DNA of 64,000 nucleotides from an uncultured Verrucomicrobiae bacterium. GTDB lineage: Bacteria > Verrucomicrobiota > Verrucomicrobiia > Chthoniobacterales > Chthoniobacteraceae. The first letter of the stretch is position 1. Each line of letters starts with the position of its first letter. The stretch covers positions 1 through 64,000 of the forward strand of contig CAVYKI010000003.1 of NCBI GenBank assembly GCA_963769025.1. The letters run 5' to 3'. A program made the position numbers. This document shows positions 15,001 to 39,000 of this stretch, piece after piece.

Positions 15001-18000
15001 CGGTACGAACCGCGGATCGAGTTCCCGGGCACGGTGTTCAAACGCGCTGCGCCGTGCCGCGTCGCACTCCGCGGCGGCGGGCGCGATGCCGGCGATGCGC
15101 TCGCGGGCCTCGGCGGCGGGCGCGCGCAGGAACCAATCCACCTGGAGCGCCGGGCGGAGCGCCGCGAGTTCGAGCAGGCGTGCGCGAAACGCCGGGTCGC
15201 CGGACCGCGCGCCCAGCATCGTCGAATAATGACCCGCGACATCGGGTCCGTCCGCACGCTCCAGTGCGTCGCTCCACGCCGCGAGCGCGAGCTCGGGCTG
15301 CGTCCGCACCCAGAACCACCCTTCCGCCATCGGTATGGCGACGAAATGCGGCTCGAGCATCCGAGCGCGGCGGAAGTCCGCGACGGCCTCCACGAGGTGC
15401 CCGGTGTTCGCGAGCGCTCCGGCTCGCGTGAAATACGGACGCCATGCGAGCGGCGCACGTTCGATCGCGCGCGTCGCACGCGCCGCGGCTTCGGCGAACT
15501 TCCCCCGCCCTGCCAGTTCCTCCGCGCGCGACGCATGATCCGGCACATTCATCCACCACGCCGCGCACGCCACGAGCGCGAGCCCGGTGGCGCGCCAGAG
15601 GATCGGTGCGACGCGTGATTCCGCGGCCTCGTCCCGATCGCGCCGCGCGAGCACCAGCACATACGTCGCGGCGAGCACGGAGCCGAGCCGGTGCCCGGGC
15701 ACATCGACGAACCCGTGAATCACCGCGGCCACCGCTGCCGCGGCCGCCGCGCTGCGAAGACGGCGTTGCGAATTGCGTTCGAGCGGCAGCGCGCCCGCGA
15801 GCGCGATCCCCACGGCCAGCAACGCCAGCGCCGCACCGGCCCAGCCGGCCTCCGCCACGAGCCAGAGCCAGTCGCTTTCCGGATGAATCACCACCGACTG
15901 CGTGATCGATTCCGCACGGAAAAACGGGAAGAGCGACTGGAAGTTTCCGAGCCCCGCGCCGCACCATGGCGAATCGGAAGCGAGCGCAAACGTGTCGGCC
16001 CAGATGCGAAACCGGAAATCCCCCGCCAGGATCGATCCGCTGGCGAATCGCCCCGCAATCGCGCCCCCCCAGATGAGGACACCCGACGCCGTGAGCACGA
16101 GCGCCGCCACTCCGAGCAGCAGGATTTTCCACGAGCGCCGGCTCCATGCGACCGCGGCATTCCAGAACACCAGCGCTCCGAAGAACATCAGCACCCCGCC
16201 GCGCGAGTAGCTCGCCGCGAGCCCCGCGAGGATGACGGCCGCCATGAGGATCCACGGCACCGTGCGCAGCTTGCTCCGCCGTGCCGCGTCGGCGGCGCAT
16301 CCCACGGCGAGCACGCCGCCAAGCGCGAGGACATGCGCGGTGTGGTTTCGGTTTGGAAACGGCCCGAGCCCCGAGTCCCCCAGCCACCCCGGCATCCGCC
16401 ACCCGGTGAACCATTCGACGACGACGAGGATCGCCAGCACGGCGACGCCGCCCACGAGGCAGCGCGCACCGATCCGCCGGGTCGCATCGCCCCACGGGCT
16501 CGCCATCAGCCAGCCGGTCCACGCGATGCCCGCTGCGAGCAAAAGCAACGCTTCGAGAGTCAGCCGCGGCTGTGGTGAGAGTGTCGCCGGCAACGCGATG
16601 CCTGCGATCTCGACCGGCGCGCGCCATGAGGGGACGCCAAATTTGTCCGCCGGGAAAAAACCCGCGGCACCGAGCATGAGCAGCCCCAGCGCCGCGACGC
16701 ACCAGCCTCGCCCAGGCAGCACCGGTGGCGGCGAGAGCAGCAGCAGCATGCCGATCACCGCGATGACGAGCGCCTGCGCGAAGCGTTCCGTCGCCCCACC
16801 CGCCAGCACCGCGGCGAGCACGAGGAGCGGCACGAACGCAGGAGCCCGCACCACGGGGAACGAGGCTGTGCGTGCGTCTTGCATGGTTGCCCGGGACTCA
16901 ACCACAGCGGGCGCTCGCAACACCACCCGCAATTCGCAAAACCGCCGCGGCCGCCGCCTCAGTAACCGCCGGGCGCACCCTGCGCGCCGAGCAGTTCGCC
17001 GCCGTATTTCACGTTGCCGAGGATCAGCGGATTGCGCATGCCGAGATCGCCGAGCAGCGGCGCGGCCTCGCTCTCGCGGATGTTTTTCACCTCCTCGAAG
17101 AAGAAATGGCCCGCACTGAGCGCAGGCGCGAAATAGGTGCGCAGGTTGTGTCCGACCGGATCGGACAGACTGTAGAAGGCGCTCGATTGCGTGATCTGCA
17201 CGCTGTTCGGGTAGTCGCGGATCACGGTCGTCGGGAATGTGGCGAGCCAGTTTCCGCCCGCATCCACGATGACGGTCTGCGTGCCGATCATCTCGCCGTT
17301 CGCATTGTAGAGCGAGAGGACGAGCGTGGAGCCGGGGTCCGCTTCGCCGCTGTAAATCGGCGCGAGCGGGAGCAGGGGCAGACGGTAAGGATCCGTGCCG
17401 TGGACGATGTAGTTCTCCAGATCCGATCGATCCTTGGTCGCGAAGTTGTTGAACGAATCGAATGCAAAGGTGAACGGCTTCAGCCTGACCTCGTCGCGCA
17501 GTTCGTAATCATTCAGGCCGCCACCGCCGTAGAGGCTGTCGCCGGCGCGCCGCTCCACCGGTGAATCACCGGGCAGGCTGGTCCACGTCACATCGGCTGC
17601 GTTCACGAGCGTGCCGCCATTCCCGGCGCCGGCGGTCACCTTCACCCGGTAGGTGATGACGATCTCCCCGCCGACCGGGATGTCGAACTGCCCGCTGAGC
17701 GCGCCATTCGCATCCGATGTCGCGGCCTGCGTGATGACCGCGCCGCCGGTCGCACCCGTAGTGATGCTCTCGATTTGCAGCCCCGCTGGCAGAACGTCCG
17801 AGAAAACGGTTTCCCACGCGGTCGCATTGCTGCCGGTCGCGTGGCCGATCGTGACGGTGAATGTGAGGATGTCGTCTTGCGCGGGAGTCGTGGAGCCGCT
17901 GACGAGTTGCTTGTCGAGGAACAGGATCGGCTCGGCGACGGCCGCCTGCGCGGGATTCGAGACGATGTCCACCGGCGGCGGTTCGGGCGTGCCGTTGCCA

Positions 18001-36000: not shown

Positions 36001-39000
36001 GCAGCTCGAAGCCGAGCTGGAGATCGCAAAAATCCAGTCCGAGCTTCAGCGCACCAAGGCCGAGCGTATCGAGGAACTCGCACGCAGCCAGCGTGCCGCC
36101 CGTGAAGAGCTGGAGCGCGCCCGCGCCGACATCAAAATCCGCGATGCGGAAATCCGGAAAATCCAGGCCGGCATCGACACGCGCACGATGCGCAGCCCCG
36201 TGGACGGCATCGTCACCGAACTCAAGCGCCACCCGAGTGAGGCCGTCTCGCTGTCGAATCCTCACGTCCTTACCGTGGTGCAAATTGACCGCCTCATCGT
36301 GAATCTTTTCCTCCCGCCCAAGCGCGTGGAGAAGCTCACAGTCGGCAGCAGCGCCATCCTCGCACTCGGAGAGAATCCGCAGCGCGTCCCCGCCACCGTC
36401 GAGTTCATCTCACCCGTCACCGACGCCGCTAGCGGCACCGTCCGCGTGAAATTCGTGCTCGATAACTCCGCCGGAAAACTCCGCAGCGGAGTCACCGTCC
36501 TGCTCGCGGATTAGAACCTGTCTTTCATTTTGGCAGCACAGCCCGCATAGGGCCAAAGGCCCGCCCATGGGGCATGACAGGCTTTTGGCTCAGGGGGTGA
36601 GGTTGCGGAAGTAGATGGTGCGGAAGCGCACTTCGTCGTCCTCGGGCTCGGGGGTGCCGCGGTTGTCGTGGTAACGCTCGACGACGGCCTGCTGGCGCTG
36701 CTCGGCGGTTACGATGAACTGGCCGTTCGGCGTCTGGCGGAGGGCCTGGCCGATAGTGTAGACGCCGAAGACATTGCCACGCGCAGTGATGAGGCTGGCG
36801 ACGTCGCGCACGAGGTCCTCGCTTTTCTCTCCGGCATCGGCGACGCCCTTGATCTCGCAGATCTCGCCGGGGGTGTCGAAGGCGTTGGGCTCGGTCGCGG
36901 TCGGGCTCACTTTCCACGGGTAGCCGTACACCTTTCCCTTGTTCGAGCCGGTGGCGAGGGTGCGGCTGAAAATGTTCGCGGCGATGGTCTCGGCGATCGC
37001 GGCAGTCCCGGGCGCAGGGAGATTGGAGGATCCGGTGAAGAGCGCCACCAGCCCGCGGTTGCGGATGAGCGTGGGGAACGGATCCACGTGGGAATTGACA
37101 TTGATGCGCCCGCCGACGGCGGTGCCGTGCGGGGTGAAGATGGCCTCGGGACCCGTCACGCCGGCGCTCGGCGCGGCGAAGAGATCCATGAATGCCCAGT
37201 CGGGCAGCGTCTTGGCGTCGGGATAGTTGTTCGGCTGGAGGCGGATGGTTCGCCACGGGATGCTGCCGACCTTGGCGTCGTTGCCGGTGTGGATGTAGCC
37301 GAGCTCGGCGATGGACGTGACGCGGCCGTTGTCGTGCGTGGGGTCGTTGCTCCCGATGCCCTTCGGCGGCGGCATGTAGAGGCTGTAGTCGGAGACCTTG
37401 CCATTTTCGTCGGTGTCCTGCTGCGGCTTTCCGGCGGGCGACTTTGTCGGCGCGAGACCGATGGTGGAGACGGAGTTCAGGCTGCCAAAGGTGTTCCTGC
37501 CATTCTTGTTCAGGACCCAGTCGCTCGGGTGGATGTTGCACCGCGGGTCATCCACTTCGATGGACACCATGTTGTCGATGGTCGTGCTGGCGGGGTCGCT
37601 GGTCTTGTAGTTGATGTTGCCGACCTGCGTGCCGATGTTCACGCGGGGCCAGCGGTTCAGGTCGCCGGCGAGCAGGCCGTCGGAACCGGTGAGGCCGTTG
37701 TAGAGCGCGCCGCGGGTGGCGATGGTCGTGCGGTCGGCGTACTTTTTGTCGCGGTAAAAGGTCGCGGTGACGGTGACGTATTTGCCGGCATTGAGCGTGG
37801 TGCCGTTCGGCCCCTCCCCGCCCTGCACGTCGGCCTTGAAGATGCGCACCGCGTTCGTGCCGTGATTTTCCATGAGCACCATCTGGCCGTTCGGGCTCTT
37901 GTAATAGTACTTCGCCGACTTCGGATCGCGCGTCTCGGTGGCGGTGATGAACCAGCCCGTGGAGGTGGTCGCGGGCTTCGCGATCAGGTCGGGCACGAGG
38001 TCGATACCGACATTTTCAAAGCCATACTTCGGCGGGAGGTAGAGCTCGGTCTTGAAGTAGCACTTGTAGAGCTGCGCCGGCGCGCCGCTGGAGTCATTCG
38101 GCCAGCCGGGGGGCTTCGGAGTGGGCGGGTCGGAAGCATTGGCTTCGATCCAGAATCCCATCTCGGTGATGTATGGCGCGCGGCAGATGCCCTGGTAGGA
38201 GTTCGCCGCGCCGTAGGTGTAGCTGGGATGCAGCGTGAACTTGTCCTTGTTGTCGCCCGAGGCATTCGGCGGCCCGATGGCAAAGCGCAGCGGGGCGATG
38301 ATCTGCGTCTGCGATTCCTTGGCGCGGACGTAGTCGATGATGTTCACCGCGATCTGCCCGAGGCGGCCGTCGGAGTCCGGCGTGCCGGGGTAGTATTTGT
38401 CCTTGAAGCTGACGCCCGGCGCGAGCGGCCAGTTCTTGCGGCTGATGTAGTCCATGAGCATGCGGACGACGGCATCGAGCTTGTTCGGGACGAGCGGGGC
38501 TTTGCTCAGGACGCCGTTCGCATTTGTCCAGTCCGGCTGCCCGCCGGCGAGATGCTCGAGGATGCCGGGGTCGGGGTTTGCGGGCGCATTCGGATCGCTC
38601 GCGCCTTTCTCCCGCACGATGTCGAGGAACTTGCGGGCATAGGTGCCGTCGGCGTTCTTCGGCACGAGTTTGGGATTCATCGTGAGGAGGATGCGGTCTT
38701 CGCCGAAGAACGTGGTGTCCGGGTCGTGGTTGAAATGGGTGAGCTCGAATTTGTTGTAGTCGAGCACGCGCGCGATTTCGGGGCTCACCTGCCGCGCGTC
38801 GGCGAAGGAATTGAAGAAGCGGCCGGGCGTCTTCGCGGTCCAGTTATGCAGCGAGTCCGCGAGGAACTCCGTGAGCGGCGCGCCCGTGCTGACCGTGAGC
38901 GCCATGAGATTGATGCGGCTCGGGTGCGCCGCCGGGGCGTCGTTGGAGTTCGACGCGATGGTGCTCGCGGTGTTCCGCTTCCACGCGAGGTTGTAGTTGA

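Follow-up and report, generated by a model that had tools for sequence, protein, structure and literature searches.

In type I secretion of the colicin V / PCAT type, substrates leave the cell in a single step by way of an MFP and an outer-membrane factor (OMF) of the TolC type. The inner-membrane component carries a fused peptidase that recognises the N-terminal leader and cuts it; this peptidase is a C39 cysteine protease, and classical RTX-type systems use a C-terminal signal. Gram-positive bacteria have an accessory SecA2, a second SecA for a few very large surface proteins with unusual N-terminal signals. We analysed a 64,000-nucleotide stretch of an uncultured Verrucomicrobiae bacterium (hereafter, the window) with a locus that resembles both. 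It shares with colicin V / PCAT systems an MFP, a TolC-type OMF, an N-terminal leader and an inner-membrane component with a fused peptidase, but it has no ABC transporter, and instead combines a SecA-like motor, an M50 metalloprotease, a PqqD-like candidate leader-binding domain and a putative cargo of thousands of residues. It shares with the SecA2 of serine-rich adhesins an extra SecA that is probably for very large tagged surface proteins, but its SecA scores below cut-off with the NCBIfam SecA2 models, is much shorter, has no SecY2 or Asp partner and is found in a cell with two membranes and a TolC-type duct. In sequence, the RRE and M50 parts are homologous to proteins that handle RiPP leaders (NF041824 daptide protease; YydH/EpeP of epipeptides), and EpeP is thought, according to a review (PMC10885120), to export its peptide as well as cleave it. 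The system here differs from these proteases: scores are below the equivalog cut-offs (167.7 vs 300), the RRE-M50 unit forms one protein with an HlyD adaptor and is combined with a SecA-like motor and an OMF, and the candidate substrates are not short peptides but large repeat proteins that look unmodified.

The gene set itself has been in print since 2015, when Kamneva, Poudel and Ward (PLoS One, PMC4452313) reported a conserved 'secondary SecA_DEAD' locus with Peptidase_M50-HlyD, GAF-HlyD, an HlyD protein and sometimes OEP, and proposed a type I-related secretion machine. The passages of that paper available to us name no cargo, call the biological role completely unknown and do not mention an N-terminal tag, a PqqD-like domain, kinship with RiPP proteases or DUF3467; a term search of its full text found neither 'cargo' nor 'adhesin'. 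NF012209 (LEPR-XLL domain, short name LEPR-8K) is a short motif with which very long proteins begin. Two papers mention it in passing, and our literature search found no link between this domain and any export system. Here we propose, from gene content and sequence comparison, that a giant DUF4347/DUF11/SdrD_B protein is probably the dedicated cargo of an envelope-spanning export machine without an ABC transporter.

The putative cargo gene and three candidate export genes lie head to head in the window (Table 1). The initial annotation described the cargo as one gene of ~4,900 aa, with DUF4347, SdrD_B and DUF11 domains, that is split by a frameshift, and the sequence bears this out. The first frame starts with the ATG at 31728 and runs on the minus strand to 23893, the frame switches at 24068/24069 by a 1-nt shift between ...VRDTLP and RGLSGITG..., and the read-through product has ~4,922 aa. 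Pfam and NCBIfam searches identified DUF4347, DUF11, SdrD_B and isopeptide-type TIGR04226 repeats in this protein, and no RTX repeats were found in it. On the other strand, the ORF from 33920 to 36514 joins a short SecA (SecA_DEAD, PPXD, P-loop_SecA) in frame to the MFP because two extra bases are present (or one is missing) at 35726-35727. When the alternative frame is followed, SecA terminates at 35820 and shares its 30-residue tail with a 632-aa homologue (P0005, 91% identity), and the ATG of the MFP at 35798 overlaps this end by 23 nt, in agreement with the suspected fusion by frameshift.

Table 1 Features of the putative cargo gene and the candidate export machine
Feature	Position	Strand	Details
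Giant gene, 3' part (second frame)	16959..24113	-	SdrD_B x9, SpaA, DUF11
Giant gene, 5' part	23893..31728	-	Leader, Pro/Ala-rich linker, DUF4347 (residues 102-266), then DUF11, SdrD_B, isopeptide-type repeats
N-terminal leader	31627..31728	-	MPIK...RRNTRKRLLLETMEDRILCSA; divergent LEPR-XLL-type tag; motif at 31627-31677
Divergent intergenic region	31729..31907	.	179 bp between cargo gene and OMF gene; presumed site of the promoters
OMF	31908..33785	+	TolC-type; Pfam OEP; signal peptide
Short SecA paralogue	33920..35820	+	NBD1-PPXD-NBD2 plus ~30 residues of scaffold helix; 632 aa read through; frame broken at 35726-35727
Small secreted HlyD-type adaptor (MFP)	35798..36514	+	238 aa; signal peptide
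M50-HlyD	contig C10		717 aa; HECGH and NPLMRFDGY intact
HlyD partner	contig C10		610 aa
DUF3467 gene	C10:87570-87809		Absent from the initial annotation

The short SecA scored below the cut-off of all NCBIfam SecA and SecA2 models (best 559.8 vs 814), as had been reported for it, and its homologues have 551-709 aa, mostly 603-646, among the 120 matches listed. It aligns with residues 37-606 of Bacillus subtilis SecA, and the regions after ~606 are absent; the motor and preprotein clamp are present, and the wing, two-helix finger and C-tail are missing. A search of this genome for T1SS ABC exporter families gave no match at or above cut-off.

Scanning all six frames of the 5.34-Mb genome gave a single occurrence of the leader motif, LLLETMEDRILCSA, as the initial annotation had stated. 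Its NF012209 score is 13 bits, the highest in the genome but below the cut-off of 17. Motif and family align as xLExxExRxLxSA, but Cys replaces the family's Leu in the window version, which constitutes a distinct subtype in Chthoniobacteraceae. We also made a profile from 44 leaders that are not of the window's own type, and its best match among 55,978 six-frame segments was the window motif (E 0.028; runner-up 0.72). The window's leader has no hydrophobic Sec core, and neither does any of the 51 leaders examined, which upholds the claim that the cargo lacks a Sec signal. The motif lies at the extreme N-terminus and is conserved although the cargo bodies differ. When leader class was mapped on the machine tree, three changes sufficed, whereas shuffled labels required 9.5 on average and none of 200 shuffles was as low. 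Where a genome has both module types, each leader type stands beside its own module. Leader type thus follows the clade of the machine even within single genomes, an observation that is new here. As far as comparative genomics and homology can show, these results support the proposal that the motif is an N-terminal targeting signal. Giants do carry the tag, as the initial annotation held, but it is not confined to them, since it also occurs on frames of 225-1,200 aa in Nitrospirota and Phycisphaerae genomes.

We compared the distribution of the tag with that of the module in three separately drawn samples. Among 200 verrucomicrobial genomes other than our own, 45 have M50-HlyD and 13 a full-length short SecA. 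NF012209 starts frames of 1,169-20,466 aa in 13 genomes, all of which (13/13) are among the 45 and 12 of which are among the 13; within the 45, the tag occurs in 12/13 genomes with short SecA and 1/32 without it. Weak over-cutoff matches (18.7-19.6 bits) in frames of 38-354 aa were seen in four verrucomicrobial genomes without the module. The Planctomycetota sample (150 genomes without the centre genome, 40 of them with the module) has all 15 NF012209 genomes inside the module set and the tag in 0/110 module-less genomes. For Gammaproteobacteria (249 genomes, 32 with the module), 11 of 13 NF012209 genomes are module genomes, and the other two (G588 and G635), which carry the tag without detectable M50-HlyD, are fragmented assemblies. 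The tag is also carried by 8 of 10 further module genomes. An NF012209 match was absent from many module genomes (32/45 Verrucomicrobiota, 25/40 Planctomycetota and 21/32 Gammaproteobacteria). The samples contain kin and are not independent, so Fisher values overstate the association. These results show that NF012209 genomes are nested almost wholly within M50-HlyD or module genomes.

Tag and module are also neighbours in many lineages. M50-HlyD, short SecA and the tagged gene follow each other in this order on one strand in five verrucomicrobial genomes (G123, G099, G165, G096 and G180); tagged gene and module are divergent in G156, and one locus (L123) has a complete operon of OMF, MFP, GAF-HlyD, M50-HlyD, SecA and tagged giant gene. 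The sole over-cutoff NF012209 match starts a 4,610-14,440-aa gene directly upstream of the module in 5/5 proteobacteria. In contrast, a complete genome, G060, has three tagged genes at least 148 kb from the module, and in a wide scan a tagged gene lay within the fetched flanks at only about 21 of 80 loci. For relatives of the window's own type, the initial annotation had reported the OMF-SecA-MFP triad and the divergent motif. We recovered the triad in 13/15 loci, and M(S/P)RRxLLLET(I/F/C)EDRILC once per locus in 12/15; in nine of these 12 the motif starts a frame that stays open over 1,428 aa or more, or runs off the locus, and the remaining three (L195, L196 and L205) are cut short or fragmented. 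The nesting, the adjacency and the proteobacterial cases support, at the level of comparative genomics, the earlier suggestion that LEPR-XLL-type giants are cargo of the module.

The M50-HlyD protein suggests how the leader may be handled. PqqD family matches were found for 42 of 78 N-terminal domains; their profile matches the PqqD structures 3g2b and 5sxy (E ~1e-3) and the lasso-peptide RRE 6jx3_B (E 0.017), and an Atlas feature search of the N-domain gave 0.95 to PqqD clusters. The N-domain of the window genome's own protein alone has no Pfam PqqD match, so its PqqD-like label derives from the family profile. We propose, as a new assignment, that the N-terminus is probably a PqqD-like leader-binding domain (RRE). 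Residues 23-406 match NF041824 (daptide intramembrane metalloprotease, 4e-49) and also the YydH/LiaK epipeptide protease, which makes the RiPP leader peptidases the closest relatives of the M50 part among named families, likewise a new finding. The HExxH and NPLxxxDGY catalytic motifs are invariant in 78/78 sequences. This conservation, the RiPP peptidase kinship and the preceding PqqD-like domain strengthen the case for M50 as a candidate leader peptidase, the role first suggested for it. Predicted topology places seven hydrophobic segments between the RRE and HlyD part of M50-HlyD and one in GAF-HlyD, which fits the export model.

The proposed machine has six parts: OMF, short SecA ATPase and MFP beside the cargo on the window's contig (C3), and RRE-M50-HlyD, GAF-HlyD and a DUF3467 protein encoded on C10. 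M50-HlyD and HlyD had been listed as the C10 partners and are both present, with the catalytic motifs of M50-HlyD intact, but that list was incomplete, as DUF3467 is a sixth conserved part of the module. In the model, the PqqD-like N-domain of M50-HlyD would bind the cargo's LEPR-XLL-type leader in the cytoplasm, and the short SecA would use ATP to push the unfolded chain outwards. The chain would pass a conduit formed by the membrane domains, the putative inner-membrane pore, and by HlyD adaptors docked to the OMF. The M50 intramembrane metalloprotease would cut off the leader at a presumptive site, and the cargo may finally reside at the cell surface.

Other readings of the locus bear on whether the system works in this strain and on what the leader does. 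The two frameshifts could be real and the split machine a rearrangement, so that nothing is exported; M50-HlyD adjoins the MFP gene in relatives and lies on another contig here. We nevertheless consider such decay unlikely, because a third, unrelated gene (a TamA-type Omp85 on C10) is also split and estimated completeness is only 83%, which suits assembly indel errors, and because all six parts and the catalytic motifs are otherwise intact. No public contigs bridged 24068/24069 or 35726-35727. A variant of the export model, rather than its opposite, is that the leader serves mainly as a tether: held at the inner-membrane complex, it would keep the chain attached to the cell through the duct until GAF-HlyD senses a trigger and M50 cleavage acts as a regulated release switch, not an export step, much as the LapA retention module works with LapG and LapD. 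In favour of it, the cargo is adhesin-like without a recognisable anchor, the M50 catalytic site is invariant, and a GAF domain recurs as a constant component of the module, as in PMC4452313 too. The nearest named RRE-M50 relatives, however, are, according to PMC10885120, maturation proteases by which leaders are cleaved off in the course of export, and the GAF match of the window genome's own protein is weak (E 0.11); we regard this variant as quite unlikely.

Two further readings change the route. The short SecA is a genuine SecA homologue that has both the motor and the preprotein clamp, and might, like the SecA2 that exports very large adhesins in Gram-positive bacteria, feed the tagged protein through the housekeeping SecYEG to the periplasm, from where M50-HlyD, HlyD and OMF would take over in a second step. 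This seems very unlikely, given that the protein lacks the regions after ~606, which contain the wing and the two-helix finger that act at SecY, that a hydrophobic core able to open SecY is missing from the leaders, that the gene is operon-coupled to M50-HlyD and not to any SecY paralogue, and that the predicted topology requires a cytoplasmic RRE domain. There is, at most, a slim chance that tag and module are co-inherited for another reason, with the module exporting or processing another substrate, for instance a small peptide of the RiPP kind, and the giant leaving by another route. The RiPP homology of the RRE-M50 part, 32 verrucomicrobial genomes with RRE-M50-HlyD that lack short SecA and the tag, and a radical-SAM gene near the module in a Nitrospirota locus would suit this reading. 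Set against it are the near restriction of the tag to module genomes, its single genome-wide match in each of the five proteobacteria, the absence from the cargo of a Sec signal and from this genome of a T1SS ABC family at cut-off, and the fact that large proteins bear the only conserved leader-like sequence beside modules. We favour direct export by the module, and the shortened SecA, adaptors and TolC-type protein are most likely a dedicated export machine of tagged proteins in several phyla.

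The giant gene of the window and the gene for the outer-membrane factor (OMF) are arranged head-to-head on opposite strands, 179 bp apart, as the initial annotation had described. The giant gene is split by a frame switch at 24068/24069, inside a repeat of which a paralogous copy later in the protein is unbroken, and its product read through both frames has approximately 4,922 residues. This protein begins with a basic N-terminus of 34 residues with RKRLLLETMEDRILCSA at its end, followed by a Pro/Ala-rich linker, a DUF4347 domain at residues 102-266 and then many DUF11, SdrD_B, SpaA and isopeptide-type TIGR04226 domains (Pfam and NCBIfam). 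A Sec or Tat signal on this protein was rejected on hydropathy. None of 51 leaders equals the signal peptides of the neighbouring HlyD-type adaptor (MFP) and OMF in hydropathy, and the window's own leader reaches 1.03, compared with 2.28 and 2.74. Just downstream of the giant gene, a Wzy_C (O-antigen-ligase-like) protein with TPR repeats is encoded at 14962-16932 (-).

Genes of the candidate export system in the window (C3) and on a second contig of the same genome (C10)
Feature	Position	Strand	Remarks
Giant candidate cargo gene, 5' frame	31728 (ATG) to 23893	-	ORF
Giant candidate cargo gene, 3' frame	open 24113 to 16959	-	ORF
TolC-type OMF	31908-33785	+	Pfam OEP
Short SecA	start 33920, end 35820 in other frame	+	SecA_DEAD, preprotein cross-linking domain, SecA P-loop domain
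Small HlyD-type adaptor	ATG 35798, overlapping SecA end	+	after short SecA
DUF3467 gene	C10:87570-87809	same strand as HlyD and M50-HlyD	sole copy in genome
610-aa HlyD protein	C10, after DUF3467	same strand	clear GAF domain in relatives

The leader motif occupies residues 18-34, at the extreme N-terminus, and follows the residue pattern of the LEPR-XLL model NF012209 (hydrophobic-x-hydrophobic-E-x-hydrophobic-E-x-R-hydrophobic-hydrophobic-x-S-A). It had been proposed that the motif is unique in the genome and lies below the reach of NF012209. Both points hold: the strict motif occurred once in a six-frame scan of 5.34 Mb, and its NF012209 score, the best in the genome, was 13 bits (E 0.8) against a cut-off of 17 (24 positions). 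The motif can be aligned with 25 canonical leaders. A profile of 20 positions based on 44 leaders, all of types other than the window's own, placed the giant ORF first among 55,978 six-frame segments (E 0.028; runner-up 0.72).

Relatives carry the same leader beside the same genes. Short SecA was present in 28 of 80 sampled genomes of the family, and in 13 of the 15 fetched loci of the window's own type (the ILC-SA version of the tag) it stood in an OMF-SecA-MFP triad. The motif M(S/P)RRxLLLET(I/F/C)EDRILC(S/N/D/A)A was found once per locus in 12/15, at residues 5-20 in nearly all, and in nine of these 12 it heads a frame that either stays open over 1,428 aa or more or runs off the locus; the other three (L195, L196 and L205) are cut short or fragmented. 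We drew this sample ourselves, and it reproduces the counts of the initial annotation in kind. The domain behind the leader is less constant. DUF7948 follows it in four of six relatives of the window's type (L192, L199, L200 and L203), at the place where the window's protein has DUF4347. The idea that DUF4347 belongs universally to the signal was rejected: of 50 other cargo N-termini, only 10 have it behind the leader, nine of these from Planctomycetota. A conserved tag in front of varying cargo bodies, within one leader type, looks like a signal.

The short SecA of the window was reported to lie below every NCBIfam SecA and SecA2 cut-off, and the scores agree. It reached 557-560 bits with the canonical SecA models TIGR00963 and NF009538 (cut-offs 800-814) and 411-544 bits with the accessory SecA2 models TIGR04221, TIGR03714, TIGR04397 and NF012136 (cut-offs 725-1,100). 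An intact homologue aligned only with residues 37-606 of Bacillus subtilis SecA, beyond which lie the wing, two-helix finger and C-tail; the short SecA ends approximately 30 residues past NBD2. Among the 120 closest relatives listed in the database, lengths range from 551 to 709 aa and are mostly 603-646 aa. SecA_DEAD loci number just two in the window's genome: the canonical SecA and the short one. In another genome, a short-SecA match (G062:C10:97888-99636) lies in a 1,384-aa open frame, which may have arisen by fusion to an adjacent gene or be an artefact of read-through. The short SecA and the adaptor of the window form a single 864-aa ORF only because of an indel (two surplus bases or one missing) at 35726-35727, in keeping with the frameshift fusion noted before, and the SecA tail at 35820 in the other frame is the same as in a 632-aa homologue of 91% identity.

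The remaining partners are encoded on C10. They include the DUF3467 gene, which was absent from the initial parts list; a DUF3467 protein had no significant match in a sequence search of the PDB. DUF3467 may be chaperone-like, a point on which we make no claim. The GAF match of the genome's own 610-aa HlyD protein is weak (E 0.11). The last of the three C10 genes encodes M50-HlyD (717 aa), whose HECGH and NPLMRFDGY motifs are intact, as previously stated. In related genomes M50-HlyD is convergent to the adaptor gene and immediately follows it, so the split between C3 and C10 here is secondary or an assembly effect. At the corresponding place in the window, a 1,007-aa ORF with no Pfam match occupies 36590-39613 (-). 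Directly upstream of the DUF3467, GAF-HlyD and M50-HlyD genes lie genes for a TamA-type Omp85 protein, split into two overlapping ORFs (9918-10601 and 10456-12156 (-) of locus L010, G000:C10:78000-93000), and for TamB (11931-14987).

Whether the system functions in this strain depends on whether the two frameshifts in the window are real. Neither was bridged by public contigs in a comparison of four runs over 23500-37000; one identical contig of X1 ends at 35723, three bases short of the 35726 site. The split TamA-type gene is a third frameshift in the assembly, and the completeness estimate of the genome is 83%; together these point towards both frameshifts being assembly indels.

We searched for NF012209 and M50-HlyD in the same genomes in each of three samples. 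In Verrucomicrobiota (200 genomes besides the window's own, only five of them from its order), NF012209 exceeded its cut-off in 17, and in 13 of these the match opens a frame of 1,169-20,466 aa. All 13 fall among the 45 genomes with M50-HlyD. A full-length short SecA is present in 13 genomes, 12 of them among these tagged ones; the remaining tagged genome, G004 (230 contigs), has only partial SecA matches. The other four of the 17 lack the module, and their matches, weak at 18.7-19.6 bits and in frames of 38-354 aa, were taken as false, although they are still counted in a looser table. In Planctomycetota (150 genomes besides the centre genome), all 15 tagged genomes were among the 40 with the module, and the tag occurred in 0 of the 110 without it. 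In Gammaproteobacteria (249 scored genomes besides the centre), 11 of 13 tagged genomes were among the 32 with the module, a count that takes in one genome marked unpublished (G671); M50-HlyD was not found in the other two, G588 and G635, whose assemblies are fragmented. Tagged genomes nest almost wholly within module genomes in all three samples. One-sided Fisher values range from 1e-6 to 2e-10; they overstate the association, since kinship makes the genomes non-independent. More weight attaches to the recurrence of the pattern in three phyla. In 32 Verrucomicrobiota genomes (for example, G006, G010 and G139), RRE-M50-HlyD occurs without a full-length short SecA, with a LEPR-XLL match only in G004; these may be SecA-less relatives handling small peptides.

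Gene order also links the tag to the module. In five verrucomicrobial genomes (G123, G099, G165, G096 and G180), M50-HlyD, short SecA and the tagged gene follow one another on one strand, with the motif starting 320-450 bp past SecA; G156 has a divergent arrangement. A Limisphaerales locus (L123) has the OMF, small MFP, GAF-HlyD, M50-HlyD, short SecA and tagged giant gene in succession, with gaps of 5-70 bp. Directly beside this complete six-gene operon is a phage-type integrase gene (L123:697-1740 (+)), which would fit spread as a mobile island. A scan of species-representative genomes with the M50-HlyD alignment yielded 80 loci from Planctomycetota, Verrucomicrobiota, Alpha-, Beta- and Gammaproteobacteria, Nitrospirota and one Saprospiraceae genome. 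A SecA-like gene detected by tblastn with the window's SecA adjoins M50-HlyD in at least 43 of them. The module of Seongchinamella has a far more divergent SecA-like gene (L128:11886-14060 (+); Pfam SecA_DEAD only, E 6.6e-12) that tblastn missed, so such counts are a floor. The Nitrospirota locus L116 encodes a 762-aa radical-SAM protein upstream of the module (3936-6221).

Tagged long ORFs were found inside the flanks in 16 of the 80 loci, and one further locus has a variant without the Arg. In nine proteobacterial loci, a giant ORF that begins outside the flank runs towards the module and stops 1-3 kb short of it; in all five of these genomes that were tested with NF012209, the single over-cutoff match (28-39 bits) was the start of that ORF of 4,610-14,440 aa. 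The tag was also present in eight of ten further module genomes. Against adjacency, a tagged gene was not resolved inside the fetched flanks for most of the 80 loci, and the complete genome G060 has three tagged genes at least 148 kb from its module. The proposal that LEPR-XLL giants are the cargo is supported at the level of comparative genomics. The tag is not restricted to giants: tagged frames number over 20 in a Phycisphaeraceae genome, at 300-10,000 aa, and six in the Nitrospirota genome of locus L116 (G376), at only 225-628 aa, which suggests that the tag is a general signal and not a mark of giants only.

In the M50-HlyD family, ten residues (H201, E202, H205, N295, N297, P298, L299, D303, G304 and Y305) are invariant in all 78 aligned members, the window genome's own included, which suggests that the M50 protease has been kept active; the HExxH and NPxxxxDG motifs of peptidase family M50 are present in the own protein, with a Pfam score of 29.8 (cut-off 27.2). 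The first approximately 105 residues of the family are a predicted PqqD-like peptide-binding domain. PF05402 (PqqD) matched 42 of 78 N-domains (best E 1.3e-8), the family profile matched two solved structures of PqqD (3g2b and 5sxy, E about 1e-3) as well as 6jx3_B, a leader-binding protein for lasso peptides (E 0.017), and a language-model feature search returned PqqD clusters (0.95); the N-domain of the window genome's own protein, searched alone, had no Pfam match. Residues 23-406 of M50-HlyD matched the daptide intramembrane metalloprotease model NF041824 at 4e-49, and the YydH/LiaK epipeptide protease model likewise. The equivalog cut-offs were missed (167.7 versus 300 bits for NF041824; 33.4 versus 225 bits for NF058609), and at the level of sequence these scores show homology to RiPP leader peptidases, not membership. 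According to the accessible part of a review of RiPP proteases (PMC10885120), the M50 enzyme EpeP is thought to cleave and also export its peptide.

By a hydropathy scan, seven hydrophobic segments separate the N-domain of M50-HlyD from its HlyD part and GAF-HlyD has one, a layout that predicts cytoplasmic RRE and GAF domains and periplasmic HlyD parts. In the mechanism that we propose, the RRE-type domain would read the short N-terminal leader in the cytoplasm, the wingless SecA motor would drive the unfolded chain, N-terminus first and in one step, through a conduit of M50-HlyD, GAF-HlyD, MFP and OMF, and the M50 site would remove the leader. The PqqD-like domain is likely to be the leader receptor and the M50 site the leader peptidase. 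We infer the direction of transport, the path through the inner membrane, the cleavage site, the roles of GAF and DUF3467, and whether cleavage serves maturation or release.

Leader type was found to follow machine type. In a FastTree phylogeny, the 78 M50-HlyD proteins fall into two deep clades, both with local support of 100%. In clade A (Proteobacteria, Phycisphaerae, Nitrospirota and many Verrucomicrobiota), LLSA, or a sequence close to it, ends every one of the 13 neighbouring leaders that are known; in clade B (Pirellulaceae, some Verrucomicrobiales and the window's own type), 11 of 12 have an aromatic residue or Cys there (LFDA, LYDA or ILCSA). The three leader classes require three changes on the tree, compared with a mean of 9.5 after shuffling, and none of 200 shuffles was as low. 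Such clustering could arise from joint inheritance of operon and cargo. Chthoniobacteraceae hold both clades, and five genomes have a module of the window's type as well as paralogous modules. Tagged long ORFs lie beside seven of the ten paralogous loci fetched from these genomes, and in six of the seven the leader is of the LLS type, not the window's. The correspondence extends to single genomes that contain both kinds of module.

The gene set of the window is the already published 'secondary SecA_DEAD' locus of Kamneva and colleagues (2015, PMC4452313); the accessible text of that paper proposes a relative of the type I secretion machine and leaves its role open. The genome has a second SecA_DEAD protein without the C-terminal SecA domains beside the canonical SecA, M50-HlyD and the 610-aa HlyD on C10, and the small MFP and OEP in the window. 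A HlyD-family MFP and a TolC-type OMF are shared with type I secretion, whereas no dedicated HlyB/PrtD-type ABC exporter reached its cut-off in this genome at 83% completeness (best scores 361 versus 725.6 and 213 versus 510 bits); the nearest type I ABC match on C3, among the matches listed, lies at about 100 kb. The RTX repeats of type I cargoes likewise had no counterpart in either half of the window's cargo (Pfam HemolysinCabind), although some cargoes of other genomes have them. By working principle the system is closest to peptidase-containing type I exporters and RiPP leader-peptidase exporters, and by its motor it recalls SecA2 systems, yet by their defining tests it belongs to none of the three. 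Omnitrophota giant proteins with built-in SecA-like domains, as presented in the accessible text of a preprint (bioRxiv 10.1101/2023.11.21.568195), were set aside because their arrangement differs. The LEPR-XLL domain receives only passing mention, in two papers of the accessible literature, and we found no link between the tag or its proteins and the module there, a search to which subscription journals and bioRxiv supplements were external.

The best reading of these data is that the giant adhesin-like protein is the putative cargo of a leader-guided, SecA-like-driven, TolC-coupled exporter. Such a system could have evolved when a RiPP-type leader-peptidase exporter was coupled to a SecA paralogue, a step that extended the possible cargo from peptides to proteins with over 20,000 residues, and the LLSA, aromatic-DA and ILC-SA leader/RRE subtypes would be mutually orthogonal pairs that allow several systems side by side in one cell. 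To the full proposal of a distinct secretion system, with leader reading by the RRE, one-step export by a wingless SecA, cleavage by M50, a joint RiPP-exporter and SecA origin and orthogonal subtypes, we give about an even chance. The window contributes a divergent subtype of the leader, one not detected by NF012209, together with a machine of clade B in Chthoniobacteraceae that is split over two loci and the correspondence between leader type and machine clade.

The wider question is how bacteria export proteins that range from 5,000 to over 20,000 residues and have neither a Sec signal nor an ABC-type exporter. Cultured strains that carry one module and one tagged gene, for example of Seongchinamella unica, Puniceibacterium sediminis and Pelomonas candidula, are suited to direct tests, and the matching of leader and machine types may be of use in engineered secretion of very large proteins. 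Cargoes with the ILC-SA leader are under-counted at present because current models miss this subtype. The LEPR-XLL tag had no assigned function in the searched literature; tying it to the six-gene machine would provide a cargo for the 2015 'secondary SecA' locus, a candidate receptor for the tag and a substrate for the M50 protease.
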